Positions 1 through 49,390 of a DNA stretch of 64,000 nt are shown here, piece by piece. Position numbers and translations under genes: made by a program. The DNA is from Candidatus Saccharimonadota bacterium (lineage in GTDB: Bacteria; Patescibacteriota; Saccharimonadia; Saccharimonadales; SZUA-47): positions 774,727-838,726 of the forward strand of contig CP065013.1 in NCBI GenBank assembly GCA_016700315.1, given 5' to 3'. The notes under the pieces were generated by a model. That model saw only the letters and a list, made by a program, of their open reading frames with translations, did not search any database and was not told where the DNA came from. Position 1 is the stretch's first letter. Each line of letters begins with the position of its first letter.

Positions 1-489
1 GAATACATCGTAAAGTCACTAGTTGGTAATCCTGACGCAGTCAAGCTAGTGCGGACCATTGACGAAAAAGGTGTGCTCTTGGAACTCACTGTTGATCCTG
101 AGGATCTCGGCCGTGTTATCGGTAAAAGAGGGGCAACTGCTCAGAGCCTAAGGACATTGTTGCGGGCATTGGGTACAAAAAACGAGGCTCGCTACAACCT
201 GAAGATTGTTGACAACGGTGAGCCAAGACCAGAGCGAGCGTCTCGTGATGAAAGCAGATATTCTGCAAGCAACGACTCTTCTTCTAGCTACGGATCAGAC
301 GATTCAACCAGTAGTGACGATTCGGTGACAAGCGTCTCTGATGACTCATCGAATGATACCATTAATAAAGCGAGCGATGATGCTTGGGGTATGCCAGAAC
401 CAAGTTCTGATAAAGATGAAGCAGATCACGAATCGGTTATGTCCAAGACCCGCAAAGAGCTAGAAGATCTCGACGACCTCGATATCTGA
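1..489 (+). CDS. khpA: KH-domain RNA-binding protein (KhpA/YlqC-like), 5' partial, with long acidic Ser/Asp-rich C-terminal tail
   Basis: Frame 1 is open from window start; VGRVIGKRGATAQSLR KH-type motif; classic position upstream of trmD. Confidence 0.6.
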   Translation, partial: EYIVKSLVGNPDAVKLVRTIDEKGVLLELTVDPEDLGRVIGKRGATAQSLRTLLRALGTKNEARYNLKIVDNGEPRPERASRDESRYSASNDSSSSYGSDDSTSSDDSVTSVSDDSSNDTINKASDDAWGMPEPSSDKDEADHESVMSKTRKELEDLDDLDI

Positions 490-916
490 GCAACATGCCA
501 GCCGGCCTTCTTTGGGGCGCAGTCCCAAACTCTGCCGACTTCTCTGGCTATCGAACGCTTTTTTACTGTGTTGCTCACTCGCCGTATATTAAATACGTCT
601 TGTTGCGTTACTCGCTAAAAACCGTACGCTAGCTCAGAGCATGTTACTCAGATGCTAATGTGGTTTGAAGCCCATATCTACTTCATTAATCCTTAATCGT
701 CAATCGTTATTCAGCGCCGAAGACGTATAAAGCGCTTGTGCTAGTGTTCGTGGTCTGTTAGGATATTTATTACGTCCGTTAAAAACAAAAGCGGCAACAA
801 AAACAAAAACAATTCAAAGCTCATTGCGAGCCATCGGGTTCAATAAGTAAGCCAGATGGGGGCTTTATGTGATTAAATGACTGTCGAACTGGCGGTCATT
901 TAAGTTAGGGCGAGAA

Positions 917-1357
917 TTACCTTACAAGAGTCAAGTGTCTAGCCCGGGAGGTACGTCGTACTGCCTTGATCTCGGGAGTGCCATTCCAATGGTTACTAAT
1001 TTCTTTACCCGCATCTATTGCTTTAGAAAGAATGCTCCAGATCACCTCGTCGTATGGCAGCTCTAGTACAGGCTGGCAATACTGCTCGCTGTGGTACTTA
1101 GTCATAACCATCTCAGCTAGCAGTCTGCGGCTAATAGTAGCGGCGGTATCTTGTTCATTATCATTATTTACAGCAAATAAGTGAGGATATCTTTTTTTTA
1201 GAAATTGATTACTATTCGTTTTATAAACATCAATCGCTAGGTTGAGCTTTATTGTAAAAGCCCTCGGATTTGGTTCATCAGACATATTTAGGCCATCGTT
1301 AGCTAAAAGTGCTTCCTGGGGACTAAATTTTATCTTCTCTTTATCTCGCAACATCAC
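917..1357 (-). CDS. hypothetical protein (sits where rimM is usually found between khpA and trmD, but antisense)
   Basis: 146-aa ORF, no recognisable motif. Confidence 0.35.
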   Translation of the reverse strand: MMLRDKEKIKFSPQEALLANDGLNMSDEPNPRAFTIKLNLAIDVYKTNSNQFLKKRYPHLFAVNNDNEQDTAATISRRLLAEMVMTKYHSEQYCQPVLELPYDEVIWSILSKAIDAGKEISNHWNGTPEIKAVRRTSRARHLTLVR

Positions 1358-1368
1358 AATATGTTATA

Positions 1369-2016
1369 ATGAAACTAATGAAAATACAAGTAATAACATT
1401 ATTCCCGCAGATGTTTGAGGGTGTTTTGGGTCAAAGTATGATGTGGAAGGCTCAAGACAAAGCTAAAGTCGAATTTGAGCTGATAGATCTGAGGCAATTT
1501 GGGTTGGGTCCCCGTCGGCAAGTTGATGATACTCCGTACGGTGGCGGTGACGGCATGCTTCTGATGATCGAGCCGCTGGTTAGAGCTATAGAATTTGCTA
1601 AAGTTAACTCGCCATCGGCCAAAGTAATTTTGCCTACGCCTCGCGGCAAAACCTACAAGCAATCGGACGCCAAGAGGCTAGCAGCAGCATCAAATGATCT
1701 GATAATCGTTTGCCCACGCTACGAAGGCTATGATGAGCGGGTTACTAATTGGGTAGACGAGCAGTTTTGCGTCGGTAATTACGTTCTAACTGGCGGCGAA
1801 TTGCCGGCTATGGTAATTATCGATTCAGTTGTCAGACTCCTGCCAGGTGTGTTGGGCGGCGAAAAAAGTGTTGAGATAGAGTCCTTTCAGGAGGACGATA
1901 AAAAGATCGAGTTTCCCCAGTACACCAGACCCGAAAAGTTCAGGGGCCAAAATGTGCCCAAGGTGCTATTAAACGGGCATCACGCAGAAATTGAAAAGTG
2001 GCGAGCCGAAAACTAA
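1369..2016 (+). CDS. trmD: tRNA (guanine37-N1)-methyltransferase TrmD
   Basis: VITLFPQMFEG, YGGGDGMLLMIEP, VLTGGELPAMVIIDSVVRLLPGVLG SPOUT-knot motifs. Confidence 0.9.
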   Translation: MKLMKIQVITLFPQMFEGVLGQSMMWKAQDKAKVEFELIDLRQFGLGPRRQVDDTPYGGGDGMLLMIEPLVRAIEFAKVNSPSAKVILPTPRGKTYKQSDAKRLAAASNDLIIVCPRYEGYDERVTNWVDEQFCVGNYVLTGGELPAMVIIDSVVRLLPGVLGGEKSVEIESFQEDDKKIEFPQYTRPEKFRGQNVPKVLLNGHHAEIEKWRAEN

Positions 2017-2087
2017 CATTAAACTTGCATGATCTGCATGTAAAGCGTATAATCACGTTTAATAAGTAGTGTATCGGAGGAGATATA

Positions 2088-3113
2088 ATGGGACGTGCTA
2101 GAGCTATAGGTTTAACAGTAGGATTATTTGGTGCTGGAGTTGGTGGGTCGTTGCTAAAAGGGGGAGAGGTTAGCGCACACGTGCCTTTAGTTACTCCGAC
2201 CTGTGACTCTCTGGATATCGATCTATCAAGGTATGAGGATAATGGTACGGGCCAAAACAACATTATCAGAGTTGTTGTAGATGGTACTCTAGTTACGAAC
2301 TCATTATTCGGCAGCAGATATGTCAAATCTATAGAGCTGAATCCCGCACAGAAACATGACTATGAGGTCACAGTAGACGCCAACAGGTTGATTGGCGATC
2401 CTGTAAAATGGGATTTTTCAACTAGCGGTACCACTGAGAAGTGCGTGTCTCCAACCGACCCCACAGAAAGTACCGAAGCTTCAACGACTACATCCACCAC
2501 CGAAGCTCCAACTACGACTACATCTACCACTGAAGCTCCAACTACGACTACATCTACCACTGAAGCTCCAACTACGACTACGTCGACAACTGAAGCCCCA
2601 ACTACGACTACATCTACCACTGAAGCTCCAACTACGACTACGTCGACAACTGAAGCCCCAACTACGACTACTACATCTACCACTGAAGCTCCAACTACGA
2701 CTACATCCACCACTGAGGCTCCTACAACTACCACAACCACCGAAGCTCCAACTACGACTACATCTACCACTGAGGCTCCTACAACTACCACAACCACCGA
2801 AGCTCCAACAACGACTACATCCACCACTGAAGCTCCAACAACGACTACATCCACCACTGAGGCTCCTACAACCACCTCAACCACTGAAGCTCCAACAACG
2901 ACAACTACCGAAGCCCCAACAACGACTTCAGCCACAGAAGCTCCAACAACCACAACAACTTCTGATGTTGTGCACACTACAACCACTGTTAGCGACAGAG
3001 AGACTCCAGGCACCGGTTCAGAACCAGGCGGCGTAGTATTATGGGCCAGTATAATTACTGGTTCAGGGTTAGCGATCTACGGTGCATCGCGTATTAGGAA
3101 AAGGACTGTCTAG
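2088..3113 (+). CDS. Thr-rich mucin-like surface protein with C-terminal hydrophobic anchor plus basic tail
   Basis: About 13 tandem STTEAPTTTTS repeats; C-terminus TPGTGSEPGGVVLWASIITGSGLAIYGASRIRKRTV resembles a cell-wall sorting signal. Confidence 0.7.
   Translation: MGRARAIGLTVGLFGAGVGGSLLKGGEVSAHVPLVTPTCDSLDIDLSRYEDNGTGQNNIIRVVVDGTLVTNSLFGSRYVKSIELNPAQKHDYEVTVDANRLIGDPVKWDFSTSGTTEKCVSPTDPTESTEASTTTSTTEAPTTTTSTTEAPTTTTSTTEAPTTTTSTTEAPTTTTSTTEAPTTTTSTTEAPTTTTTSTTEAPTTTTSTTEAPTTTTTTEAPTTTTSTTEAPTTTTTTEAPTTTTSTTEAPTTTTSTTEAPTTTSTTEAPTTTTTEAPTTTSATEAPTTTTTSDVVHTTTTVSDRETPGTGSEPGGVVLWASIITGSGLAIYGASRIRKRTV
2470..2960. repeat. 33-nt tandem repeat array (about 13-14 copies) encoding TEAPTTTTSTT units
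   Basis: Near-identical repeats accgaagctccaactacgactacatctaccact directly visible. Confidence 0.85.
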
Positions 3114-3718
3114 CTCTTCTTCGGCCTAATCAGCAGCCATAGTACTTCTGCTAAAATCAGGAAGAATACACAGTAAAACCCTACTTCTATGGCAAGCTCT
3201 GCTTTGTAGCCTTCGTTGAAATGCGTATGGAAGTACCACCAAGCGCTAAGTATATATAAGGCAATCGTGCATAGGGTGGTGACAAGTATTGAAAACTTTT
3301 TTAGCAGCAGTGAAGAAACCACAATCGGCAGAGTAAACAATATTACGGCTCTACTCGACATACCGCGCTGAGTGTAAATACTGAAAGTTGCGAGAGCTAG
3401 ATCGGCAGTTATTAGAGCCCAGATAACTCTCCTATGATGGCCGTGATCTCTGTTTGGTTTTGAAGAGTAAAACCAGGCTAAAATGTAGACGCTGGTTACG
3501 ACAAAAAGCGCTAGCCAACGCTGTTTGGCAGCGAAAGGTGTGATTAGATTCCAGGCATCAGAGAGGACGATGTAGACTGCATAAATTAATGCTAGAACTA
3601 TGTGTAGTTTAGCCGCAGGTCTTGAAACAGATTCTAGCCAATGATCGAGTTTTTTTTCGATGACTTTTTGTTTTTTCATTAACCTAATAAGTAAAGCATA
3701 AAACAAGATCCTGCGCAA
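3110..3718 (-). CDS. polytopic membrane protein, unknown function
   Basis: 202-aa ORF with 5-6 hydrophobic helices. Confidence 0.55.
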   Translation of the reverse strand: MRRILFYALLIRLMKKQKVIEKKLDHWLESVSRPAAKLHIVLALIYAVYIVLSDAWNLITPFAAKQRWLALFVVTSVYILAWFYSSKPNRDHGHHRRVIWALITADLALATFSIYTQRGMSSRAVILFTLPIVVSSLLLKKFSILVTTLCTIALYILSAWWYFHTHFNEGYKAELAIEVGFYCVFFLILAEVLWLLIRPKKS

Positions 3719-3753
3719 AAAAGTTCACAGGATCTTGATTGTTATCGTAATTT

Positions 3754-3927
3754 TTAGGCTTCTACGATTTCGGCATCGGCGGAAGCTCGTGCAACAGCCT
3801 CACAGCCTCGCTTGGCACCTGCTTTGTCGGCGTATTCTTCGCCTGTAGCAACTACTTCGCCATTACCGGCTTTTAGACGCCAACGGTAACCGTTTTTACT
3901 TTCATAAATCTCAAATTTTGCTGCCAT
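3754..3927 (-). CDS. YegP/DUF1508 (UPF0339) small protein
   Basis: 57-aa ORF not in track: MAAKFEIYESKNGYRWRLKAGNGEVVATGEEYADKAGAKRGCEAVARASADAEIVEA; FEIY-x-GY-RWRL-A-NGE core typical of YegP. Confidence 0.55.
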   Translation of the reverse strand: MAAKFEIYESKNGYRWRLKAGNGEVVATGEEYADKAGAKRGCEAVARASADAEIVEA

Positions 3928-4051
3928 GTTTAAGTAACCTCCTTAATTTAGTATCTTCATTTTACTCTCTCCGTGGCCTATCGGTCTACGGAAAATGGCT
4001 ATTGTTGACATTAAGACTATAATAAAAGCATAAGACTAAAGGAGAAAAACA

Positions 4052-4576
4052 ATGAAAAAAATAAAACTTATGAGCGCTGCCTTCTGCCTAATAGCCGCAA
4101 GCTTGCTCATGCTAGGGAGTAATTATGCATCCCTCACCGTAAAGGATCAGCTTTCAGCCCAAAAAATATCATTTCCAGATAAGGCAACGTTAGAAAAAGA
4201 CAACTCCAAGCTGGTCTCTTTTGCCGACAAAGCTGTAGATACGGGTGATGAAGCGAAAGCTTATTCGGATTACATCAAAGGCCACTTGGCAAAAGTTGCC
4301 AATGGCAAAACCTATTCGGAGGTAAGCGGCGAGTTTCAAAAAGATCGAACCAACAAAACCCTAGAGGCCCAGAGAACTAATCTTTTCATGGGCGAGACGT
4401 TACGCGGTTTACTACTCAACGCGTGGGGTTGGGGCTTAGTTGGAAAAATTGCTCTATGGGCCTCGTATGCAGTGTTCATAGTTTCGGTTGGACTGTTAGT
4501 GTGGGCAGTAGCCGACAGTGGTACTCGTAAATCGCTGCCAGCCCATACGGTTGCAAAACGAAAAGCCAAAAAGTAG
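4052..4576 (+). CDS. secreted/lipoprotein-like hypothetical protein with C-terminal TM helix
   Basis: N-terminal MKKIKLMSAAFCLIAASLLMLGSNYAS signal-like segment; C-terminal hydrophobic stretch plus KRKAKK. Confidence 0.5.
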   Translation: MKKIKLMSAAFCLIAASLLMLGSNYASLTVKDQLSAQKISFPDKATLEKDNSKLVSFADKAVDTGDEAKAYSDYIKGHLAKVANGKTYSEVSGEFQKDRTNKTLEAQRTNLFMGETLRGLLLNAWGWGLVGKIALWASYAVFIVSVGLLVWAVADSGTRKSLPAHTVAKRKAKK

Positions 4577-4579
4577 TTA

Positions 4580-5188
4580 CTAGGGTCGAAAGCTGCTAGG
4601 CAAGTTGTCGAAGTCAGTCTCGGCGATAATCGCATCCGCTTCTTTGTTCGCTGCAGCTATTTTATGACGCTGCTTTAGGGAATTGAATGCTAAATAAACT
4701 GCCTGGGCGGTGACGCCAATGCCGTCCGCTAGAAAATCTCCTAGCTCCTTATTTTCAGCCTTAGCCTTGTGGCTTGCAAGTAAGTCAGATAGCTTATAGA
4801 GCTCTGGGTGAGATTTGAAACCCCTTGAGGATATGTTATAAAACATTGATGTGGGATCATTGACTGCCAGAATGGTGCGACCGAAACCCTGAAGCTGGGT
4901 GCTGGCTAGCCTTCTGCACTCTGGAAAATCGGCTATTGGAAGGACACTTTGATCTAATGCTAAGCTAGTAATGCCTGATCCAATAACAAACGCATCCCTG
5001 CACTTAGCAACACCAGAAGCAGTATCAAAAAGCGGAAATACCGTCTCAGCGAGCAAAGTACACGCAGCTTTAATTTCTGAGTCAAAAAGATTTTCGATGC
5101 TGCCTACTAATTTCGTAGGATCAGCCAACGCTCTCTCATAGACATTGGACAGAGGGTCTAAAACCAAAGCCTCTGGATAAACAGGCAT
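4580..5188 (-). CDS. hypothetical protein adjacent to the tRNA-Gln island
   Basis: 202-aa ORF, no recognisable motif. Confidence 0.4.
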   Translation of the reverse strand: MPVYPEALVLDPLSNVYERALADPTKLVGSIENLFDSEIKAACTLLAETVFPLFDTASGVAKCRDAFVIGSGITSLALDQSVLPIADFPECRRLASTQLQGFGRTILAVNDPTSMFYNISSRGFKSHPELYKLSDLLASHKAKAENKELGDFLADGIGVTAQAVYLAFNSLKQRHKIAAANKEADAIIAETDFDNLPSSFRP

Positions 5189-5646
5189 GAGAATATCTTA
5201 CAACATTTAGAATAATATTCAATACCCCGGTATTGTTTTAGTCGTAAGTTTTATGATTGGCCGCGTTTTTCGACGCTAGTCAGATTTTAGATTGGACCGA
5301 GTTTTAGGCTATGATATCCTAGTAACACTTGTTTATGCACTAAGCGTGAAAAAGCCCTGAAGATCTTTCTGATGGCAGATCGTAAGAGAACTTTTCAGGT
5401 TCCACATTCGGGTGAGAAGCACCAGCGGTGCTTCGGAAACTCGGAAACAGATTTTGAACTTGTTCAAAGTATGTTGAGAGCGGTGAAGCAATCCTGTGAA
5501 TTGCTGCAAGTGAGTCCACTCTTGAAGATTCATTTTCAAAGAGGTGGCGAAGGGGTCGCAGAATGTGACCGGGACTCGGCTGAAACTTGTTTCACCAAGA
5601 TCGTGACGACAATCCCATTCGAACACCTCGCACCTTTAAGGTATAA

Positions 5647-7263
5647 TCAATCATATATTGGGGATTGGCCAAGCGGTAAGGCAACGGGTTCTGGTCCCGT
5701 GATCGGGGGTTCGAATCCCTCATCCCCAGCCATTTTCGGACTTTTTAAGAATTGGTCGCCCAAATGGGCGGCTTTTTCTTTGGCTGCGCGGAGCGCAAGC
5801 CAGATGTTTTCTTGGGGGGAATTGGAGCTACGGCGCGGCAGAAGCCGCGCTTGTTTTTTAGATAAAAAGAGGTTCAATCCGTCAATTTCAGCAAAAGCGG
5901 CTTTTATGGCAATCGGCTCGGCGTTTGTGGCTATTTTCTTGAGAGAAACAGCCGTTTTGAGCCACTGGCGCATAGGTTCAACCCAACTATTAGCGGCAAG
6001 TGTAAGTTTGGCGATTTGTTCTTCAAGCGACTTCTTTTCACTCATTAGTTCGGCTTGCTTGGTTTTGTATGTCGGCTGGTCAATGTCTTGGTCTAGGTAA
6101 CTGTCCAGAAGTCGCTGTAACTTGCTTTGCAAGTTACGCACCTTTTCTTGTGCTTCGGCTATGAATACGCCAGTGGTTCGCTCGGCTGTTTTCTCGTCCT
6201 CGTTCAGCATTTGCTCAAGCGTAGTTGCCCACGCGCTCGGCAGGGCGTAGCCCTGCAAAATATCGGACAACTGCGCCACAAGCTGTGGTTCGGTTATGGC
6301 TAGTTCAATGCACTTCATTATTTTACTTTTGCGCGTGCAACGGTAATAGGTGTATTCGTGTATATTGCCGTTCTTTTGGTGCTTGACTTTCTTTTCGGCA
6401 GTAATTGCCATATTGCACACGCCGCAAATTAGCAAACCGCATAAGGCTTGTGGCGCGTTCGCGCCTTTTCGCTTGTGCCCGCGCTTTTCGGCTACTGCTT
6501 GCACCGCGTCAAACAGTTTCTTGGACATAATCGGCGTGTGCTTGCCCTCGTACATCTCACCAGCATATCTAAAATGTCCGTAGTAAAACGGATTTGTCAG
6601 CATATATTTGATTTGGTCTTTTTTGAGGGGCAAGCCGCCGCTGGTTTTTATGCCGTTGTCGGCAAAATAGTCGGCAATCTCCTGCAACCCTTTGTCGCCT
6701 TTGCTGTACAGCTCAAAAGCCGATACAACCAGCGGCGCACGCCGTTTATCTACAACAATAGTGCGGGTACGCACATCATTTATGTAGCCGAGCGGTGCAA
6801 GTCCAGGCATTTCACCGCGTCTGACTTTTTGGCGTAGCCCACGCTTGGTGTTCTCGGACAGATTGTCTACATAGTATTTGCTCTGACCAAATGCGATGGA
6901 CAGCATAAACTTGCCCTGTGATGTGTTCTCAAACCAAAATGTCGGAAACTTCAGATTGGTCAGGTGCGTTTGGTCTAGCAAATATACGATTTGTCCGCCG
7001 TCAATGGAATTACGGGCAAGTCTGTCGGGGTGCCACGCGATTATACCGCTGGCTTCGCCAGCCTCAATGCGCTTCAACATCGTGCCGAACTTCGGGCGGC
7101 CTGGTATTTTAGCGGTGCGCTTTTCAATAATGGTATCTACAATATGCAAGCTGTTATCTCTGGCATACTTCCGCAGTTCGGCAATCTGCGCTTCAATACT
7201 TAAAACCTGCTTGTCCTCTACGTCTGTACTCTTGCGAGCGTACAAAAAGTATTTTTCGTTCAT
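5647..7263 (-). CDS. large serine recombinase (phage-integrase/TnpX/CcrAB-type); C-terminus uncertain because the ORF reads through IR-A and the antisense of tRNA-Gln with no stop
   Basis: N-terminal YARKSTDVEDKQVLSIEAQ catalytic Ser motif; recombinase domain; zinc ribbon CGVCNMAITAEKK...YYRC; C-terminal coiled coil. Confidence 0.85.
   Translation of the reverse strand: MNEKYFLYARKSTDVEDKQVLSIEAQIAELRKYARDNSLHIVDTIIEKRTAKIPGRPKFGTMLKRIEAGEASGIIAWHPDRLARNSIDGGQIVYLLDQTHLTNLKFPTFWFENTSQGKFMLSIAFGQSKYYVDNLSENTKRGLRQKVRRGEMPGLAPLGYINDVRTRTIVVDKRRAPLVVSAFELYSKGDKGLQEIADYFADNGIKTSGGLPLKKDQIKYMLTNPFYYGHFRYAGEMYEGKHTPIMSKKLFDAVQAVAEKRGHKRKGANAPQALCGLLICGVCNMAITAEKKVKHQKNGNIHEYTYYRCTRKSKIMKCIELAITEPQLVAQLSDILQGYALPSAWATTLEQMLNEDEKTAERTTGVFIAEAQEKVRNLQSKLQRLLDSYLDQDIDQPTYKTKQAELMSEKKSLEEQIAKLTLAANSWVEPMRQWLKTAVSLKKIATNAEPIAIKAAFAEIDGLNLFLSKKQARLLPRRSSNSPQENIWLALRAAKEKAAHLGDQFLKSPKMAGDEGFEPPITGPEPVALPLGQSPIYD
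5659..5732 (+). tRNA. tRNA-Gln (anticodon CTG)
   Basis: TGGGGAT acceptor; GCCAAGCGGTAAGGCA D-arm; anticodon loop TTCTGGT; GGTTCGAATCC T-arm; 3' end ATCCCCAGCCA; near-identical in layout to E. coli tRNA-Gln. Confidence 0.9.
5728..5863. repeat. IR-A left copy (136 bp), begins with the last 5 nt (AGCCA) of tRNA-Gln
   Basis: 100% identical to the reverse complement of 7414-7548 by direct comparison. Confidence 0.9.
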
Positions 7264-7392
7264 AGTTTACCCCCTAAAACTTAAATGACCGTCCTGGTGC
7301 AACCAACCTAGAAGAACTAGATTGTCCAAGACGGCCATTTAAGCCCTCAAATAAAAATAGTTCTTCACTGGTTGGTTGCTCTTTCATTATAT

Positions 7393-7413
7393 CAAGAAAA
7401 CCGCCTGTGGCGG
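7393..7413 (-). terminator. hairpin CCGCCACAGGCGG followed by TTTTCTT on the minus strand, at the IR-A boundary upstream of the recombinase gene
   Basis: GC stem plus T-run visible on the reverse strand. Confidence 0.35.
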
Positions 7414-7548
7414 TCTAAAAAACAAGCGCGGCTTCTGCCGCGCCGTAGCTCCAATTCCCCCCAAGAAAACATCTGGCTTGCGCTCCGCGCAGCCAAAGAA
7501 AAAGCCGCCCATTTGGGCGACCAATTCTTAAAAAGTCCGAAAATGGCT
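7414..7548. repeat. IR-A right copy (inverted)
   Basis: Reverse complement matches 5728-5863 exactly. Confidence 0.9.
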
Positions 7549-7758
7549 CATTTTTACAACGAGGCTAGAACCTATTTCCAACAAGATGTGTAAATGTAAG
7601 CCCCACCGTTTGCCAGCCAAAGGCTGACCCGCCCCGCCAGCCCTGACTTTTGCATTTTTGATGTTCCCCCCGCCGAATTTCTTCTTTCAGTTGAGAAAAG
7701 TCAGGTCTGTCGGGTCGGCTGCGCTGGAGCGCAGAAACGGCTGGGCTTGGTCGGTGGC
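7545..7758. repeat. IR-B left copy (214 bp), abuts IR-A right copy through a shared TGGC/GCCA core
   Basis: Reverse complement identical to 9320-9534; the two copies produce the identical 67-70 aa ORFs 7565..7777(-) and 9310..9513(+) seen in the track. Confidence 0.9.
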
Positions 7759-7953
7759 ACAACGTACAAAAAACCAAAAAATGCTGGACTTTTCATTGTA
7801 CCTATGCTACAATATATTTTATGAAATTGAGCAACAATTTCTCATCAGTTAAATCACTCGTTGCTCTGCATCTCTTGCACTGGGCTTAGTCCCGAATTGT
7901 CTTAAATTACCATTTGAATCTATATTATTTCTTAAACTTTTAGGAGAAAGACC

Positions 7954-8643
7954 ATGTCCGCCATAGGAATACTTGGCGGTATGGGGCCTCAAGCAAGCAA
8001 TAAGCTGTATGAGCTACTCATTAAGGGTACGCAGAACTATACGCCTGCCGCCGTTGATGATGACTATCCAGAAATTGTCTTGCTGAACGTCCCCGTACCC
8101 AACTTCATATCAGACAAAAGCGAATTGCCAAATGCGAGGCAAATGCTTATCGAACGCACAAAGCTGCTTGAACAAGCAGGCTGTACCGTCAATGGTATCG
8201 CCTGTAATACAGCACACATCTTACTGCCCGAACTGCAAGCAGTAACAAAAGTGCCGTTCTTGGCCATACCCGCGTTAGTGGCAGATAACATTAAGGCCGC
8301 TGGCTACAAGCGAGTAGGCTTGTTGGCTACGCCCACAACCTTAAACTCTACGATATATGACGAGGCTTTAGCCGATGTCGCTGAAATAGTGCGGCCAGAC
8401 ACTACATTTGCAGAGCAAATTGAGCAATACATCTATAAAAAGCTCAATGACAGTTTGACGGAACGTGAAAGGCAGCAATTTAGGCGACAGGTTAAAACAT
8501 TTAAGGAAGCGTACAACCTAGAAACAATTATTCTAGGCTGTACAGAATTGCCGCTAGTATACGGTGCCATTGATAGTGCGGATGTCATCGACACGTTGCA
8601 AGTTCTAGCCGATGAGCTGCTGAAAGAGTATTTTACTCCTTAG
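7954..8643 (+). CDS. aspartate/glutamate racemase family protein (aspartate racemase-like)
   Basis: MSAIGILGGMGPQAS start, NTAHILLPEL and GCTELPLV motifs of the Asp/Glu/hydantoin racemase fold. Confidence 0.8.
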   Translation: MSAIGILGGMGPQASNKLYELLIKGTQNYTPAAVDDDYPEIVLLNVPVPNFISDKSELPNARQMLIERTKLLEQAGCTVNGIACNTAHILLPELQAVTKVPFLAIPALVADNIKAAGYKRVGLLATPTTLNSTIYDEALADVAEIVRPDTTFAEQIEQYIYKKLNDSLTERERQQFRRQVKTFKEAYNLETIILGCTELPLVYGAIDSADVIDTLQVLADELLKEYFTP

Positions 8644-9283
8644 CAAGTTTCTCTTGGCTCGAACCGTTGATGATGTAAACATCACCGTCACGAAAGGTTT
8701 TATGTGGTATGTTGTTGCCCACAACATACTCATATTCCTTTTCGACTGCTTCGGACTCGTGGTGGTTTGAGTGAAAGTGTACGATTGGGTAGAAATCTAT
8801 ATAGCCCAAACCGTCCCATATTTCGCCAGACTCGTAGCCTGCTGCGCTTGCGTCTTTGTCATCGACCAGCTCAACGCCTTTGAGCGATTTTGTGAGTACA
8901 CAGAACGCTGCACTATAACCAGCATAGACCAGTTTGTCGGTTTCTATGAGTTCCCGAAAAACTTTGTCAAAACCACTTTGCTTAAAGGCTTTTGCGAGTA
9001 TAAATACATTTCCACCACTGAACCAAACTAAGTCGTATTGCTCCATTTTTTCAACGATGCCGTCTTTGCCAAAATAGTGGCGTAAATCTAGTTCTTCTGG
9101 CTGATAGCCGAGGCTTTTCATATCTTCAAGTTCTCGTTTGAGGACGATGTCATTTCTGACATCTGGCTCTGTACTATCAAGAGCATTAACGCAAACGGCC
9201 ACTTTTGCCGCTGGCTTACCAACCAGCTCTTTTAGTTTTTCGGTGTGATCTCCGAGGCGATACGATGACATATAGAGTTTCAT
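8633..9283 (-). CDS. peptidase S51 family (peptidase E / alpha-aspartyl dipeptidase-like)
   Basis: LVWFSGGNVFILAKAFKQSGFDKVF...YAGYSAAFCV motifs; start chosen at MKLYMSSY just outside IR-B. Confidence 0.75.
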   Translation of the reverse strand: MKLYMSSYRLGDHTEKLKELVGKPAAKVAVCVNALDSTEPDVRNDIVLKRELEDMKSLGYQPEELDLRHYFGKDGIVEKMEQYDLVWFSGGNVFILAKAFKQSGFDKVFRELIETDKLVYAGYSAAFCVLTKSLKGVELVDDKDASAAGYESGEIWDGLGYIDFYPIVHFHSNHHESEAVEKEYEYVVGNNIPHKTFRDGDVYIINGSSQEKLAKE

Positions 9284-9319
9284 AAGATAAGCATAGCAAA
9301 TCGCTAGGCTTGCAGCTAC

Positions 9320-9534
9320 GCCACCGACCAAGCCCAGCCGTTTCTGCGCTCCAGCGCAGCCGACCCGACAGACCTGACTTTTCTCAACTGAAAGAAGAAA
9401 TTCGGCGGGGGGAACATCAAAAATGCAAAAGTCAGGGCTGGCGGGGCGGGTCAGCCTTTGGCTGGCAAACGGTGGGGCTTACATTTACACATCTTGTTGG
9501 AAATAGGTTCTAGCCTCGTTGTAAAAATGAGCCA
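9320..9534. repeat. IR-B right copy (inverted), ends ...GTAAAAATGAGCCA
   Basis: Exact reverse-complement match to 7545-7758. Confidence 0.9.
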
Positions 9535-10231
9535 AATGCGACAGCAGAATTTCAGACCTAAGTCCCTAATTCTGCTATTACATATGGAAGCATCATTTAA
9601 TATCGTCAGTGCATTCTTCAAAGGCTCTTCAAATCAAGCCAAACTGGCAGCTGGATTGGAGGCAACAAAACACTCAGATAGTGATAGCTTTTTGTATTTA
9701 TCATATGTCATTGCAAGTATTTCTCAATCTGTAGCAGCCTTAGAAGCAGAAGCATTTAATATTATTAACTATGGCATAGGACATACGAAGGGCTCTAACG
9801 GTTACAACTTAGAATCGATTGTTGCCCTACATACAGATGCGGCGAAAATCGATAGGATGCCTATTGTAGATAGATATTCTGTTATTTTGCAAATATTGGG
9901 TAAGGAACCGATGAATTACGATGAAGATATAGTCCGTGATATGCATAATCTCTACAATCTGAGAAATGAAACCACACATTATAAGTCATTTGCCACAAAC
10001 GAAATTATTCCTGAACCTAATAACGATGAAGATTCTGCGTCTAGAGTAAATTTCAAATTACTTGATGATCTAGGCCTTAAGAAATCACATTTTTACGGCA
10101 AAGAGTACGGAGGTGTTCCATTACTGCAATATCTAGGATACGAAACAGCAAAATACTCGAATATCATCGCCAAAAACTTTCTCGTGTATTTTTATAACAA
10201 ATTAGGCGAAGACAATCCATATCTAGATTAA
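9527..10231 (+). CDS. hypothetical protein with C-terminal Rx4H (HEPN-like) motif LRNETTHY; cassette gene
   Basis: Start ATGAGCCAA overlaps the AGCCA core ending IR-B; no other recognisable domain. Confidence 0.5.
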   Translation: MSQMRQQNFRPKSLILLLHMEASFNIVSAFFKGSSNQAKLAAGLEATKHSDSDSFLYLSYVIASISQSVAALEAEAFNIINYGIGHTKGSNGYNLESIVALHTDAAKIDRMPIVDRYSVILQILGKEPMNYDEDIVRDMHNLYNLRNETTHYKSFATNEIIPEPNNDEDSASRVNFKLLDDLGLKKSHFYGKEYGGVPLLQYLGYETAKYSNIIAKNFLVYFYNKLGEDNPYLD

Positions 10232-10237
10232 TGTTCC

Positions 10238-10256
10238 AGACCCATATGCTCAGCCA
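10238..10256 (+). repeat. cassette-boundary repeat AGACCCATATGCTCAGCCA, followed by a decayed duplicate of the 5' end of the preceding gene
   Basis: Same 19-nt element with 2 mismatches at 10802-10820; 10246-10311 encodes MLSQMRQLNIRPMSVIL, versus MSQMRQQNFRPKSLILL at 9527. Confidence 0.6.
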
Positions 10257-10321
10257 GATGCGACAGTTGAATATTAGACCCATGTCAGTTATCCTGTTTT
10301 GCATCAGTTAAGCTAACAATT

Positions 10322-10795
10322 ATGAATAAAATATTGAGATTCAAGGATATTCTTTCAAAGATAAGTGGCGTTAGTACATCAATTGCTGGTGTACAGTGGC
10401 AGACTAGCAAGAGTGAACTTGCATGTGCAAAATCAGTGATTAATTACCTAGAAGATAGACGCGTGCTTTACAATCCCACTGAACTCGAGATGCCACATCA
10501 TTGTCTTAACTCAGTTAACGAAATCATGCATTTTCTTACGTCCGAGATTGATGGGTTGAAGGATCAGAGTAACCTAAAGCTTAATCTCAAGATCATGCGC
10601 GCAGCGTGCCGACGTTTTCTTGATTCTAGCCCAGAACCAGTCAATAGATTCCCAAATAGCTACGACTCATGGGTTTTCTATAGTAATTTAGGAGAGTTGC
10701 GTGGTGTCTTTGGACTTTGTCTCCGTGAGATTGTTCTGAACTTTGAGTTAGCAGTTGAAAATGACCTTGCGATGATAATGCCTGCGGAAGATTAA
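10322..10795 (+). CDS. hypothetical protein, cassette gene
   Basis: 157-aa ORF flanked by the 19-nt AGACCC..GCTCAGCCA repeats. Confidence 0.5.
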   Translation: MNKILRFKDILSKISGVSTSIAGVQWQTSKSELACAKSVINYLEDRRVLYNPTELEMPHHCLNSVNEIMHFLTSEIDGLKDQSNLKLNLKIMRAACRRFLDSSPEPVNRFPNSYDSWVFYSNLGELRGVFGLCLREIVLNFELAVENDLAMIMPAED

Positions 10796-10801
10796 AATAT
10801 T

Positions 10802-10820
10802 AGACCCGTAAGCTCAGCCA
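10802..10820 (+). repeat. cassette-boundary repeat AGACCCGTAAGCTCAGCCA
   Basis: Direct repeat of 10238-10256, 7 nt after the stop codon in both cases. Confidence 0.6.
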
Positions 10821-10828
10821 AGGAAAAT

Positions 10829-10852
10829 CCACCCGTTCATGGGTGGTTTTTT
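10829..10852 (+). terminator. rho-independent terminator
   Basis: CCACCC-GTTCAT-GGGTGG hairpin followed by TTTTTT. Confidence 0.6.
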
Positions 10853-11041
10853 CTTGGCTTGGATCAAAGACACAACAGATTGTGTCTTTGGGGACTCGAA
10901 CAGACACAAACCTTGTTCATTGGCATTCCGCGAACGGTTCGCCGGCGTCGCGAGCCTGAAAAAACAGCAAAGCTACGGAACGCCATTCGCAGACCAATTG
11001 ACGCATTGACTTACCCCCGTTTAGCGTGTGATAATCACTCT

Positions 11042-28178: not shown

Positions 28179-28186
28179 GCTTAAGC

Positions 28187-28308
28187 AGGAATTACGCGTT
28201 TAGTGCACTTTCGGATGAAAATCGAGTGCCGCAAGCCGAGCCGTACTTAACGTACGGTGAGCGCGGAACGGAGATTTTCGCCAAAAAGGTGCAACGCGTG
28301 ATTCCTGT
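28187..28308 (+). repeat. 122-nt element with 13-bp terminal inverted repeat (copy 1); candidate structured ncRNA or MITE
   Basis: CAGGAATTACGCG...CGCGTGATTCCTG termini, internal CCGTAC-TTAAC-GTACGG hairpin; second copy at 47934-48056. Confidence 0.6.
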
Positions 28309-35468: not shown

Positions 35469-35576
35469 GATCTATAAAATCTAAATCCTAAATCATAAAT
35501 TCTAAAAAATCTATATAAAATTTAAAGTGCTAATTATTTTTGAGTAAAAAACATCAAAAAGAGTTACAATAAGTTT

Positions 35577-35927: not shown

Positions 35928-35984
35928 TTTTTGAGCTTTTTAAATTTTTTAGAATTTAGAGTTTAGAAATTAGAATTTTAATAC

Positions 35985-39131: not shown

Positions 39132-40142
39132 ATGAAAACAAAAGTTGCAATTAATGGATTCGGACGAATTGGCCGTAACGCCTTTAGAATAGCCTTTGAC
39201 AGAAGTGACGTAGAAATTGTCGGGATTAACGATCTGACAGATACCAAGACGTTAGCGCACCTGCTTAAGTACGATACAAGCTACGGCAAGTATCATCACG
39301 AAGTCGCGCATGACGACACCCACATTATTGTCAAGGGAGTCAAGATCCCAATTAGCGCCGAAAAAGACCCTTCAGTGTTGCCGTGGAAGAAGCTGGGCGT
39401 TGACGTTGTGATTGAATCGACCGGGCGCTTTACCAAGGGTGAAGACGCCATGGCGCATATCAAAGCCGGTGCCCGCAAAGTCGTTATCAGCGCTCCTGCC
39501 AAAGGCGATGATGTCCAAACACTGGTAATCGGCGCCAATGAAGACGAAATGTCCAAGAGCGGTCCGATTGTCAGCAACGCTTCCTGCACAACAAACTCGG
39601 TTGCGGCAGTGATGGATATTATGGATCGTGAGTTTGGCGTCGAAAAAGCCATGCTAACAACGGTGCACAGTTACACTGCCAGTCAGGTGCTTCAAGATGC
39701 CCCGGCAAAAGATCTCCGCGAAGGCCGTGCAGCAGCAGAAAACATAGTCCCGACTACTACGGGGGCAGCAATTGCAGTTGCCTTGACGGTGCCTAACCTC
39801 AAGGGTAGGTTCGATGGACTAAGCATCCGAGTACCTACCCCAGTTGTTTCGATTAGTGACGTCACAATGGTGCTAAAGCGCGATACCACCAAAGAAGAAA
39901 TAAACGAAGTTTTTAAGAAGGCTGCCAAAGAGCCTTACTATCAGGGAATAGTAGGTGTTAGTGAAGAACCTTTGGTGAGCAAAGACTATGTTGGAAATAG
40001 CCATTCTGGTGTGGTTGACCTGTTACTCACTAATGTTGTTGCCGGAAACCTGGTCAAAGTAGTTGTCTGGTATGACAACGAATGGGGCTACTCTAATCGT
40101 TTAGTTGAGCTAGTAGCTGATATTGGCAAAGCACTAAAGTAA
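39132..40142 (+). CDS. gap: glyceraldehyde-3-phosphate dehydrogenase
   Basis: INGFGRIGR, SNASCTTNS catalytic Cys, WYDNEWGYS. Confidence 0.9.
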   Translation: MKTKVAINGFGRIGRNAFRIAFDRSDVEIVGINDLTDTKTLAHLLKYDTSYGKYHHEVAHDDTHIIVKGVKIPISAEKDPSVLPWKKLGVDVVIESTGRFTKGEDAMAHIKAGARKVVISAPAKGDDVQTLVIGANEDEMSKSGPIVSNASCTTNSVAAVMDIMDREFGVEKAMLTTVHSYTASQVLQDAPAKDLREGRAAAENIVPTTTGAAIAVALTVPNLKGRFDGLSIRVPTPVVSISDVTMVLKRDTTKEEINEVFKKAAKEPYYQGIVGVSEEPLVSKDYVGNSHSGVVDLLLTNVVAGNLVKVVVWYDNEWGYSNRLVELVADIGKALK

Positions 40143-40274
40143 AAATCTAAATGATAAATTCTAAATTCTAAAAAGACAGGAAATTTAGAAAATGCTAGTG
40201 AGAAACATCGTAATAGCGTCATCATTCATCATTCATCATTCGTCATTCAACGACTCTATATCGGAGCTACACTG

Positions 40275-41509: not shown

Positions 41510-42465
41510 CTTTTTTGACTTTTAAAGTAGGCCAGTAGAACTGGTGCACCAAGCTTGTTAGCGAATTCTCGGTGTTGCTTGGCCGTCTTGATGTCGGCAA
41601 TTCTCCCTCTTACATAGGCGAGTCTTTCGGCGCGGCCTTTTGCGCGTAGGTCAGAGGTTCTTCTGATTGATTTGAGGGAAATTGGTGTGCCGCCAGCTTC
41701 GGTTCTCTCCGCTACGGCGATTATAGAGGACTCGATGGGAAGGATAAGCCAATCTATATACTTACCGCTATTTAAGTTTTTAAGCACAGTTTCCCATATA
41801 CCCAGTTTCTGACACAATAACTTCTTTAGCTTTATTGATTCCGGAGCGTAGCTAATCGCCGAGGCAAACGAGTTAACAAGTTTAGCTCCATCAATTCCAA
41901 GAGCCTTAAAGTTCTCCATCTTCTCTGCCACTGATTCCGGAGCGTAGCTAATCGCCGAGGCAAACGAGTTAACAAGTTTAGCTCCATCAATTCCAAGAGC
42001 CTTAAAGTTCTCCATCTTCTCTGCCACTGATTCCGGTGCGTAACTAATCGCAGAAGCAAACGAGTTAACAAGTTTAGGAATATTAATACTGTATTGATTA
42101 TAGGTTCTAAAGGTTGCAAGCACTGTAGCGAGAGGCATAAGGGTATGTTTTTGATTCTCGAAGTTTGTTCTGCCGTTTGGGGCCTCAATGCCTTCTGGCG
42201 TATAGGGCATGTCAGTCAAGTCAAAAAAGTTTCTGCGTGCCAAAAGTGCTTGAGAGTAGTCTACTGGTTTGTGTGTAAGGTGTTCGACGTCGCTTCCTAG
42301 TAGCTCATTGAGCTGAATAAGCACACCAACGTCTGGTTCAATGCCACAGTTTATTAGCCAGCCAGCATCTAGCTCAGCTGAGACACTCTGGGCGCGTTCA
42401 AAAGCTGCTGCCGATGTGGGTGGCATATCAAATCGCTTGAGTTCGGGGGATACAACTACTGACAT
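41506..42465 (-). CDS. hypothetical protein with three 32-aa internal repeats
   Basis: SVAEKMENFKALGIDGAKLVNSFASAISYAPE repeated about three times. Confidence 0.5.
   Translation of the reverse strand: MSVVVSPELKRFDMPPTSAAAFERAQSVSAELDAGWLINCGIEPDVGVLIQLNELLGSDVEHLTHKPVDYSQALLARRNFFDLTDMPYTPEGIEAPNGRTNFENQKHTLMPLATVLATFRTYNQYSINIPKLVNSFASAISYAPESVAEKMENFKALGIDGAKLVNSFASAISYAPESVAEKMENFKALGIDGAKLVNSFASAISYAPESIKLKKLLCQKLGIWETVLKNLNSGKYIDWLILPIESSIIAVAERTEAGGTPISLKSIRRTSDLRAKGRAERLAYVRGRIADIKTAKQHREFANKLGAPVLLAYFKSQKS
41839..42080. repeat. 96-nt tandem repeat (about 2.5 copies) inside the CDS
   Basis: ttccggagcgtagctaatcgccgaggcaaacgagttaacaag... recurs at 41839, 41935 and 42031. Confidence 0.8.
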
Positions 42466-47933: not shown

Positions 47934-48056
47934 CAGGAATTACGTGTTTAGTGCATTTTCGGATGAAAATCGAGTACCGAAAGCCGAGCCGTACTTAACG
48001 TACGGTGAGCGCGGAACGGAGATTTGCGCCAAAAAGGTGCAAGCGCGTAATTCCTG
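47934..48056 (+). repeat. 123-nt element, copy 2 of the 28187-28308 element
   Basis: About 92% identical to copy 1 in the same orientation; terminal stem maintained with a G-U instead of a mismatch. Confidence 0.6.
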
Positions 48057-48770: not shown

Positions 48771-49390
48771 ATGCTTATCATTGTACAGCGTATAGCGGTT
48801 AGGGTGAAGCGGTAAATAGCAAGTAGCAAGTCCGCCGATGGCGGCTTGGAACGATGAACGAGGAACTATGAACGAGGGAAAGCTAGCGGTTAGCGTATAG
48901 GGGTTAGGGTTTAGTAGTAAGCGTAAAATTCTAAACTCTAAGCACTAAATTCTAAAATAGACCCTAGCTCTTGGCTCATGACTCTTGGCTCTATTTGAGC
49001 GGTACGCAGTACAGGGTACGGGGTACGGGGTAATATTTGCTGGTCCCTAGTCCCTGGACCCTGGTCCCTAGTAGGTACGCGGTACGGAGTAATTTTTACT
49101 AACTACTAACTACTAGTCCCTAGACCCTCGACCCTCGACCCTGGATGGTACGTGGTACGCGGTACGGGGTAATATCTACTAACTACTAACTACCAACTAC
49201 TAACTACTAGCTACTAACTACCAACTACCAACTACCAACTACCAACTACTAGTCCGTAGCCCTAATCACTTTAACCTCTAACCTCTAACCTAATCATGGC
49301 TCTTCTATCAACTATCAACCATAAACTATCAACTCGTCATTACTCAGTAAACAGTATTCAGTTATCATTCCATTGTCTATAATGTAGCTA
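48771..49390. repeat. 620-bp non-coding satellite of heptamer microsatellites arranged in about three higher-order units
   Basis: Runs of GGTACGG, CTAACTA/CCAACTA, GACCCTC, ACCTCTA heptamers visible directly. Confidence 0.75.

Follow-up and report, generated by a model that had tools for sequence, protein, structure and literature searches.

Within a 64-kb stretch of the genome of a Candidatus Saccharimonadota bacterium (contig CP065013.1; hereafter the window, to whose positions all coordinates refer), a gene for a serine recombinase lies against the 3' end of a tRNA-Gln gene, between long and perfectly identical inverted repeats that are nested around it and around two neighbouring genes; the question that this locus raises is what such an arrangement represents. 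The sequence-only reading had taken it for a shufflon or a DNA-inversion switch, or for the outcome of very recent inversion events. Comparison with related loci suggests a different answer: the interval 5733-9534, about 3.8 kb, is probably one integrated copy of a mobile element of Patescibacteria, inserted by its large serine recombinase (LSR) at the 3' CCA end of the tRNA and carrying, between its two boundary attachment (att) sites, a complete attP in mirror orientation.

Organisation of the locus

The features of the locus are listed below, with the attachment sites as they are read from the alignment of junctions; L-numbers denote comparison loci that were fetched.

5647-7263, minus strand: large serine recombinase, 538 amino acids (Pfam PF00239, PF07508, PF13408)
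5659-5732, plus strand: tRNA-Gln(CTG), intact through the encoded CCA (ARAGORN; Rfam tRNA, 60 bits)
5708-5732, plus strand: T-arm-to-CCA part of the tRNA, read from the junction alignment as the attB-type left half-site of attL
5728-5732, plus strand: core c1, AGCCA, corresponding to N72, N73, C, C and A of the tRNA and present at all three junctions; interpreted as the crossover region of attL, between tRNA and IR-A
5728-5862, plus strand: outer arm of the first inverted repeat (IR-A), 135 nt, 100% complementary to the inner arm (repeat finder)
5754-5783 and 5832-5861, mirrored at 7522-7493 and 7444-7415: strong intrinsic terminators of IR-A, facing away from the tRNA and the core
7264-7413, minus strand: unique leader of the recombinase gene (U1), read from the sequence; same module in L214 and L219
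7414-7548, minus strand: inner arm of IR-A (IR-A'), mirror copy of 5728-5862 (repeat finder)
7516-7576 (extent approximate), minus strand: internal inverted site read as an intact attP (P arm, AGCCA, P' arm), ...AAATAGGTTCTAGCCTCGTTGTAAAAATG AGCCA TTTTCGGACTTTTTAAGAATTGG...
7544-7758, plus strand: inner arm of the second inverted repeat (IR-B), 215 nt, 100% identity, with core, P half-site and a conserved hairpin module (stem H1, 7629-7651 with 7696-7718)
7759-9319, no strand assigned: cargo segment, with genes for an Asp/Glu racemase (7954-8643, plus) and an S51 peptidase (8633-9283, minus), both from Pfam
9320-9534, plus strand: outer arm of IR-B (IR-B'), ending in core c3 (9530-9534); together with the flank beyond it, read as attR (P arm and chromosome side)

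The tRNA-Gln gene is the only one called by ARAGORN in the window, and it shares the AGCCA of its 3' end with the repeats, as expected from the anchoring of the island proposed at the outset. The nested repeats are also real and perfect according to the repeat finder, the first one measuring 135 nt instead of the 136 originally given. IR-A' and the inner arm of IR-B overlap by five nucleotides, TGGCT at 7544-7548, which are the reverse complement both of the tRNA-terminal AGCCA (5728-5732) and of the AGCCA at 9530-9534. Since no other inverted repeat found in the window exceeds 40 nt or 89% complementarity, a chance origin of IR-A and IR-B is excluded. The outer arm of IR-A contains the core, the right (P') half-site of attP, two terminators and, on the minus strand, the last 45 or so codons of the recombinase; a tblastn search found the duplicated tail of the enzyme at 7405-7548, i.e. 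in the inner arm. The racemase and peptidase genes, which had been correctly recognised between the IR-B arms, are convergent and each has its own upstream region.

In the leader of the recombinase gene, a hairpin of terminator type (7413-7401) and its T run are followed by an extended -10-like element, TGATATAAT (around 7394-7386), which is a putative promoter, and by a long structured 5' untranslated region (UTR) with GGGGG as its Shine-Dalgarno sequence. This hairpin, which reads CCGCC-ACA-GGCGG with TTTTCTT after it (minus strand, 7413-7392), sits exactly at the IR-A' boundary, where a terminator had been placed by the sequence-only reading, and is conserved in relatives; it was read directly from the sequence and was not listed by a consensus terminator scan. 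The whole leader is conserved in the window (7264-7413, minus strand), in L214 (1520-1672) and in L219 (9140-9285), with the same order of hairpin and T run, extended -10-like TGnTAnAAT and long 5' UTR. In the latter two interleaved pairings are possible, TTAAATGACCGTCC.. with ..GGACGGCCATTTAA and GCAACCAACC..GAACTA with TAGTTC..GGTTGGTTGC; the 3' strand of the pairing adjoins the GGGGG ribosome-binding site, and these pairings could form an element of translational control.

The recombinase and its tail

The enzyme is a large serine recombinase, matching three Pfam profiles: PF00239 for the resolvase-type catalytic domain (E 1.3e-21, residues 6-151), PF07508 for the recombinase domain (DBD1; E 4.7e-17) and PF13408 for the zinc ribbon (DBD2, Zn_ribbon_recom; E 3.1e-6, above the gathering score). 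The catalytic serine, Ser12 in YARKSTDVEDKQ, is invariant in 23 homologues, and C275, C280, C283, C309 and C318 are invariant among the aligned ones. The nearest solved structures are those of the A118 and SPbeta integrases, to which the enzyme is a distant match; residues 216-452 align to the C-terminal domain of A118 integrase (4kis), the A118/SPbeta alignment spans the part of DBD2 in which the coiled-coil motif of LSRs would be expected, and residues 355-425, approximately, are rich in heptad-like LQ..L repeats. Identity to members of the phage collection, or to any characterised integrase, does not exceed 28%. More than 8000 homologues were found, with 50-91% identity; among the species-representative genomes the nearest match is L011, whose recombinase is 88% identical.

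The open reading frame (ORF) of the recombinase runs through IR-A and the core and finds a stop only inside the antisense of the tRNA, after most of the tRNA has been read, confirming that its 3' end is encoded by the repeat. All aligned homologues keep the C-terminal stretch that IR-A encodes, KKxARLxPRPxSxSPQENIWxALRxxKEKAA..GD.F.KS..LA; after this shared tail they read ..EGFEP.., the antisense of the universal tRNA T-loop GGTTCGAATCC, and then diverge, each of them adjoining a different tRNA and reading into its antisense. Among the tails of the 120 closest homologues, 87 are antisense-tRNA, 15 are of the form ..FYNxARTYF.., which is the antisense of the P arm of attP, and 18 are of other types.

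Attachment sites and tRNA mimicry

The three junctions of 34 loci were aligned in tRNA-sense orientation. In all 34 the shared core consists of the 3'-terminal nucleotides of the tRNA (N72-N73-C-C-A, often with one to three further A). To the right of the core the first junction, c1, is the same as the second, c2, and this common sequence is arm A; to the left of the core c2 is the same as the third, c3, and the sequence in common is arm B'. The end of B' is conserved throughout the family as AAAATAGGTTCGAGCnnnGTnGTAAAAnnn|core, where GGTTCGA copies the T-arm of tRNAs; the P-arm motif AAAATAGGTTCGAGC..GTAAAA is conserved beside both c2 and c3, and nearly every locus retains it beside IR-A'.

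Across loci, GTTC is separated from CCA by a mode of 25 nt in the P arm (B'), the value also found in the attP of the window, versus a mode of 21 nt in tRNAs. For the LI and SPbeta integrases, the motif to which the zinc-ribbon domain binds lies nearer the centre in attB than in attP half-sites, by 5 bp or 4 bp, and this offset is what distinguishes the two sites for serine integrases (PMC11722253). The distances of 21 and 25 nt reproduce the same relation, with the outer motif 4 nt nearer the core in the tRNA half-site. Because of the sharing of the arms, the tRNA mimicry of the P arm and the 4-nt offset, the junctions are read as attL, inverted attP and attR: c1 as an attB-type tRNA half joined to a P' half, c2 as a complete inverted attP (P and P'), and c3 as a P half joined to the chromosome side. 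In the alignment the junctions are hybrids of attP and attB, in agreement with the early suggestion that the cores are att-like crossover sites; the crossover can be placed only within the shared core of 3-11 nt, and the dyad centre of attP, calculated by hand for one locus, is about N73-C74.

At 5869-5880 of the window, among the codons of an invariant DGLNL (columns ~740-747 of alignment A3), there is another T-arm-like sequence, GGTTCAATCC, located 7 nt inside the inner IR-A boundary. That it serves as a second att-like site (at 5871), with a role at the DNA level, is not supported: third positions vary as in ordinary coding sequence (CTC/CTG/CTA, GGA/GGG/GGT).

A family of elements in Patescibacteria

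More than 590 matches came from a scan of species-representative genomes, and metagenome-assembled genomes of Patescibacteria, the bacteria of the candidate phyla radiation (CPR), account for nearly all of them; the matched groups include Saccharibacteria and Moran-, Nomura-, Magasanik-, Yanofsky-, Falkow-, Doudna-, Harrison- and Liptonbacteria. Conversely, IMG/VR yielded three weak loci only, the family being almost absent from viral contigs. For the survey, 80 loci were fetched from GTDB genomes of Patescibacteria, and figures are often given for these plus the window. By self-comparison of the 80 loci, nearly every one of sufficient length has the order tRNA, IR-A, recombinase, IR-A' with IR-B, variable cargo and IR-B'. 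In the common plan the tRNA is antisense to the recombinase, IR-A measures about 100-180 nt and IR-B about 120-315 nt, and the partner of IR-B lies 0.9-8 kb further on. IR-A surrounds the recombinase in 66 of the 80 loci and in the window; IR-A and IR-B are found together in 33 loci and the window, and in all of these IR-B begins 3-11 nt into IR-A'. This architecture is maintained in many CPR classes and with recombinases as dissimilar as about 50% identity. The geometry that had suggested very recent inversions is, therefore, a conserved family architecture, its half-sites being shared among attL, an intact attP in inverted orientation and attR.

The loci also behave as expected of mobile elements with tRNA sites. 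Their targets comprise about 15 types of tRNA, several genomes hold more than one copy of the family at different tRNAs, arrays occur, and the flank past c3 in relatives is ordinary chromosome, as in L035 and L075, where the next tRNA of the operon starts 7-12 nt beyond c3. The cargo is hypervariable (102 ORFs fall into 92 clusters) and includes restriction-modification systems, with Pfam matches to cytosine and adenine methylases, Vsr, HaeII, EcoRII and NgoFVII nucleases, aminoacyl-tRNA synthetases, alanine racemase, dehydrogenases and ABC transporters, among others. A literature search, in which subscription papers were under-covered, returned no description of an LSR family at tRNA CCA ends; this family of mobile elements is very common in CPR bacteria and apparently undescribed.

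An array is exemplified by L214 (Ga0268731_1000100, 1-10339), where two members stand in tandem at one tRNA-Gly, in the order tRNA/A2, recombinase remnant, A2'/B2, cargo, B2'/A1, rec1, A1'/B1, cargo. In the position of the tRNA-proximal recombinase no gene was called, and the sequence has patchy nucleotide similarity (72-79%) to rec1, with IR-A arms that are still 100% identical; the distal recombinase is intact and reads into the attP arm of its neighbour. Thus, a newcomer can target the "tRNA|A" of a resident. A further member, L048 (CAURII010000001.1, 9684-14250), is found at a site resembling a tRNA 3' end that ARAGORN does not call as a tRNA. This insertion is 2.6 kb from a real tRNA-Gly, with a distant recombinase homologue (33% identity) in between, and the 58 nt past the far end of the element repeat the 58 nt past the tRNA at 93%, which suggests that the target site was supplied by another island with long direct repeats.

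The survey also bears on the possibility that the inverted copies are false, arising from a collapsed or mis-joined duplication in the assembly, a circumstance that the sequence-only reading had named among the conditions that would refute its own proposal. Perfect repeats are indeed where assemblers err, and a low-coverage contig, L001, joins differently. However, the same sequences and joins recur in independent samples, one of which (L010) is identical to 7758-5498 of the window; the architecture is seen in dozens of genomes obtained with different assemblers; the arms are often 97-99.6% identical rather than 100%; and contigs of other assemblies break exactly at these repeats, many of them ending at repeat edges and, in the case of many short-read contigs, at the edges of IR-B. 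Since the closed genome CP064994 carries a locus with arms 98.6% and 99.5% identical, the repeats are not an assembly duplication, and an artefact is scarcely credible.

A proposed integrative element with a mirrored attP

The reading that best accommodates these data is that of an integrative element in which attP consists of B'-core-A. The P arm of this site imitates the tRNA from the T-arm to CCA (GGTTCGA ... NNCCA), with GGTTC placed 4 nt further from the core, and its right arm, P', lies in IR-A. Recombination of attP with the attB in the tRNA, within the 5-nt core and probably around N73-C74, would generate attL at 5728 (tRNA|A) and attR at 9534 (B'|downstream DNA). On this reading, a second complete attP, in mirror orientation, lies between recombinase and cargo (7414-7758), with about 130 nt of flank on the A side and about 210 nt on the B side; the repeats are nested because this internal attP repeats the right part of attL, as IR-A, and the left part of attR, as IR-B. 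Gene conversion, or recombination between the arms, would keep them identical, and excision would yield a circle in which two repeats of about 350 bp, each holding an attP, stand in inverted orientation. If the recombinase segment were inverted from time to time, or if the mirrored attP were used for integration, this would be tolerated; either orientation would be harmless because the tRNA keeps the same two terminators, and the recombinase the same 3' coding end and the same terminator, promoter and leader.

Several points weigh against this proposal. No empty tRNA-Gln site from a close relative was found: scanning metagenomes for 3' ends of tRNA-Gln followed by A yielded 120 loci, none from such a relative, and look-ups of the flanking genes by exact protein returned only a short contig ending inside the tRNA (L091), or nothing. 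The right boundary at 9534 is placed by analogy with other loci, and the circle, the excision product and the recombination activity are predicted from sequence. Two equivalent attP sites on a circle predict equal orientations; instead, about 97% of genome loci have the 3' end of the recombinase at the tRNA, and therefore selection or an unrecognised asymmetry is needed. Some loci have arms that are only 82-93% identical and yet an intact recombinase, hence homogenisation does not extend to every locus and the role proposed for the repeats is tentative. A recombination directionality factor was not identified, with no dedicated search made, and there is no conserved extra ORF in the element. 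Finally, the loci do not share a conserved right half of attB, an unusual situation for LSR sites.

A different kind of intermediate was also considered, in which single-stranded folded forms would rebuild a double-stranded attP by A:A' and B:B' pairing, as in CTX phage. It was rejected by reasoning only, because the double-strand cleavage of serine recombinases would leave hairpin-capped chromosome ends.

Orientation of the segments

Alternative arrangements in related genomes, for which the sequence-only reading had proposed to look, do exist for the recombinase segment. It is flipped in L219/L220 (two samples), in L054 and in L057. In L219/L220 the order is housekeeping genes, tRNA-Ser (plus), core, A, leader, recombinase (plus), A', core', B and cargo; L054 and L057 appear to have this order too over the part that their contigs cover. 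Both orientations, together with cores that sit at the outer ends of both repeat pairs, are what a programmed inversion switch would need, in which the recombinase flips the two segments (attL with the internal attP, and the internal attP with attR) at appreciable frequency. The output of such a switch would be the C-terminus of the recombinase itself, ...KMAGDEGFEPP... at the tRNA and ...KMAHFYNEARTYFQQDV when flipped, the two forms being, for example, integration- and excision-competent. In this respect, the last 15-25 or so residues of the enzyme are the sole coding change caused by inversion of the segment, the attP-read-through tail FYNxARTYF occurs in the 15 of 120 homologues mentioned above, and no separate directionality factor is evident in the 3.8-kb element, none having been searched for specifically. 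Moreover, attP-attP tetramers of an LSR have been seen by cryo-electron microscopy (PMC11722253).

However, flips are rare, amounting to two of about 64 loci in the genome sample, and the orientation of the cargo relative to the recombinase is the same in four of four groups of loci that share cargo. At least one attP-type tail comes from the tandem array L214 and not from a flip; for this reason the use of the 15 tails as a flip count was rejected, an array yielding the same tail without reporting any flip frequency. Conservation of the P arm and of tRNAs at the DNA level accounts for the sequence of the tail beyond the core. Furthermore, canonical LSRs recombine only attP with attB, or attL with attR in the presence of a directionality factor, and do not recombine attL or attR with attP. 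With an architecture conserved family-wide and only the tail of the recombinase to be changed, the shufflon or inversion switch first proposed for the window appears unlikely.

The cargo of the window element is seen inverted in L001, a contig with 1x coverage that may have been assembled along a chimeric path across the repeat and is not counted as proof. Contigs carrying the racemase or the peptidase mostly break at IR-B. Overall, the arrangement seems mostly static, even if inversion, or integration via the mirrored attP, occurs.

Contents of the arms

Both arms contain more than attachment sites. In IR-A, the stems of the terminators covary between loci (GTCGCCC/GGGCGGC, GAGCGCA/TGCGCTC, GACGGCG/CGCCGTC), and therefore that part of the recombinase tail is shaped by DNA or RNA structure; in the SPxENIW block, read from the alignment, the amino acids are kept through synonymous changes (ATC/ATT/ATA, GAA/GAG), and therefore IR-A holds real coding sequence as well. 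IR-B contains a long-range hairpin, H1 (7629-7651/7696-7718), with compensatory changes: 94% of cells are paired, and double-change cells number 23 versus 7.6 in shuffles, a value reached by none of 500 shuffles, slid registers being far worse. A loop motif, TCGGCGGGG, is nearly invariant, and a second hairpin differs in sequence in almost every locus with its pairing always kept. On folding, the B' strand reaches -84.4 kcal/mol (z -3.9) and its complement -75.7 kcal/mol (z -2.4).

These structures raise the possibility that the mirrored B'-core-A is maintained as a functional unit other than a recombination site, either a small structured RNA gene or a site of synapsis through a cruciform or an accessory factor, the element needing two copies of it or one that is independent of integration. 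In the RNA version, the hairpin module of IR-B would run toward the core, with a tRNA-like end ...GGTTCTAG...AGCCA, and would be terminated by the terminators of IR-A. The covariation of H1, the pairing maintained in the second hairpin, the loop motif, the better folding of the B' strand and the presence of a terminator after the core in both copies are all in its favour. Conversely, no promoter was identified inside IR-B by sequence scan and the module has no match in Rfam, which found the tRNA only; the stems could form equally well on either strand or in DNA, the unit is predicted from sequence, and RNA cofactors are not known for serine recombinases. On balance, such a unit is rather improbable.

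A similarly low probability is given to the mirrored attP being a working part of a directionality or mobility mechanism of a kind not known for LSRs, through a tail-swapping inversion or through the IR-B hairpin acting as a structured RNA or DNA cofactor. If this were the case, the swap between an antisense-tRNA tail and an attP-arm tail would toggle integration and excision with no separate directionality factor; with either the swap or the cofactor, the element would be a self-contained system for integration at tRNA CCA ends, having a very broad range through the T-arm and NCCA of all tRNAs.

As for the identity of the arms, it is 100% in 37 of 67 IR-A pairs and in 16 of 34 IR-B pairs, and most of the others reach at least 97%; the least identical pairs (82-93%) still accompany intact recombinase genes. 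The best match of an A arm to other loci is mostly only 76-96%, hence the two arms of one element evolve in concert. Within one element the identities of the A pair and the B pair are uncorrelated, and no relation was found between arm identity and integrity of the recombinase, nearly all copies being intact. Sporadic gene conversion fits these values better than a single clock-like origin. The perfect identity in the window had been attributed to ongoing activity or gene conversion; activity cannot be read from one locus, such identity being typical of the family, and the second of the two explanations is the one retained.

Gene conversion is also what would preserve the mirrored attP if it were a functionless accident, arisen once (for instance by inversion and deletion in a tandem dimer), with the inversions resulting from neutral homologous recombination. 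Possible source arrays exist, as L214 demonstrates, and the uncorrelated identities of the A and B arms, from 82% to 100% with an intact recombinase, are those that sporadic conversion predicts. Still, the architecture persists where recombinases share only about 50% identity and across many CPR classes, and the P-arm motif of the internal copy is intact in nearly every locus, whereas a useless repeat of 350 bp should often be lost. The boundaries of the repeats are conserved too: in the 12 closest loci measured, 4-12 nt separate the DGLNL codons from the start of IR-A, which ends at ...GAGGTTCG in ten more distant ones. There is, accordingly, little reason to expect that the site is a frozen accident.

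Comparison with known systems

Such an arrangement is unusual among serine recombinases, as was remarked from the beginning. Serine integrases usually target protein-coding genes; the family described here targets the 3' CCA end of many types of tRNA via T-arm mimicry. The integrases of phages and other elements (A118/LI, SPbeta SprA, Bxb1, phiC31, TP901-1) have the same set of resolvase, DBD1 and DBD2 domains. They also share with the window element a quasi-palindromic attP of about 50-60 bp, an offset of 4 nt between half-sites (PMC11722253) and an integrase gene beside attP. Differences are evident as well: the window recombinase is at most 28% identical to any characterised member, its ORF reads across the site of crossover, and the element, once integrated, retains within itself an inverted and intact attP flanked by long stretches of identity. 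In addition, members of the family measure 3-10 kb, carry accessory cargo and are not phages, and no directionality factor, which was not specifically searched, is evident in them.

The serine invertases, such as those of the Hin/hix, Gin/gix and Cin/cix systems, are proteins of about 190 amino acids with a C-terminal helix-turn-helix that act on 26-bp hix or gix sites. The C segment of phage P1 has inverted repeats of about 0.6 kb with crossover sites at their outer ends, and the window locus resembles it in that the crossover cores are at the outer ends of long repeats, the repeats are inside the invertible unit, and a serine recombinase is found beside or inside the segment. Unlike Hin, Gin, Cin and Pin, however, the window enzyme is an LSR of 538 amino acids, its repeats of 135 and 215 nt contain att-type sites, inversion switches no structural gene and the orientation is strongly biased; it does not belong with the invertases.

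In the yeast 2-micron plasmid, a replicating molecule in which inversion serves copy-number amplification, Flp and FRT operate inside perfect inverted repeats of 599 bp, Flp being a tyrosine recombinase whose FRT substrates are identical. The excised window element, a hypothetical form, would likewise be a circle having two inverted repeats of about 350 bp with sites, two unique segments, one of which encodes the recombinase, and four isomers; differently from the plasmid, it has no replication genes. Islands with tyrosine integrases at tRNAs, including tycheposons, are likewise small, with hypervariable cargo at tRNA 3' ends, reuse of tRNAs, arrays and several copies per genome. By contrast, the window element uses a serine recombinase, has nested inverted repeats and does not duplicate the tRNA 3' end as a direct repeat, only a core of 5-10 nt being shared. 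Finally, shufflons rely on the tyrosine recombinase Rci and on multiple segments with 19-bp sfx repeats. The adjacent segments of the window, each bounded by inverted repeats that share a core, recall them; however, the window has a serine recombinase, two segments, repeats of 135 and 215 nt and no multi-exon target gene except its own read-through tail, and it does not correspond to a shufflon.

Significance

CPR bacteria have tiny genomes and little is known about their gene exchange, for which the LSR family at tRNA CCA ends looks like a major vehicle. With this family, the range of serine integrases comes to include a universal target, the end of tRNAs from T-arm to CCA, recognised by means of an attP arm resembling a "stretched" tRNA. 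The presence within an integrated element of an inverted, intact attP, accompanied by long identical flanks and a structured module, has no counterpart in the characterised serine-integrase systems. Serine integrases are tools for genome engineering, and a family with a target that is short, predictable and ubiquitous, possibly with built-in directionality, would be worth testing. The repeats also explain the frequent breaks of CPR assemblies next to tRNA genes.

Other features of the window

Past attR, the interval 9535-10820 holds two one-gene cassettes, one with an ORF at 9584-10231 that has no Pfam match, the other with a DUF6650 gene at 10322-10795. Each cassette is bounded by AGCCA (10252-10256 and 10816-10820), and the cassettes resemble each other at their left ends (9530-9574 and 10252-10296, 76%) and at their right ends (10225-10256 and 10789-10820, 78%). 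The 20 nt before the AGCCA at 10252 give the best match to the 3' end of tRNA-Gln among 192 other AGCCA sites of the window (12 of 20), and the hairpin with a T run that follows 10820 resembles the native terminators of tRNA-Gln in metagenome loci. A similarity search with 9535-10900 returned no related sequence or protein in any fetched locus. From these sequence features, 9535-10820 looks like older insertions at the same tRNA end, and the whole island may span 5733-10820.

Elsewhere in the window, the ORF at 2088-3113 contains about 14 tandem repeats of 30 nt encoding TTEAPTTTTS, an N-terminal signal-like segment and a C-terminal hydrophobic anchor; its product is probably a Thr/Pro-rich surface protein. 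Three tandem units of 96 nt are present at 41836-42123, the first two 100% identical and the third 67%. Arrays of 14-nt units (TACTAACTACTAAC-like) occupy 48926-49260, with 80-nt repeats around 49.0-49.3 kb. A TCTAAAT-rich motif of about 35 nt is dispersed in direct and inverted copies at 35.5, 35.9, 40.1 and 48.9 kb (35476-35513, 35941-35980, 40140-40174); a low-GC stretch lies near it at 35-36 kb (GC 0.34), and a second one at 51-53 kb (GC 0.35-0.36), 2 kb past the 49-kb arrays. A direct repeat of 109 nt, 95% identical, is found at 28186-28294 and 47934-48042, its copies being 19.7 kb apart.

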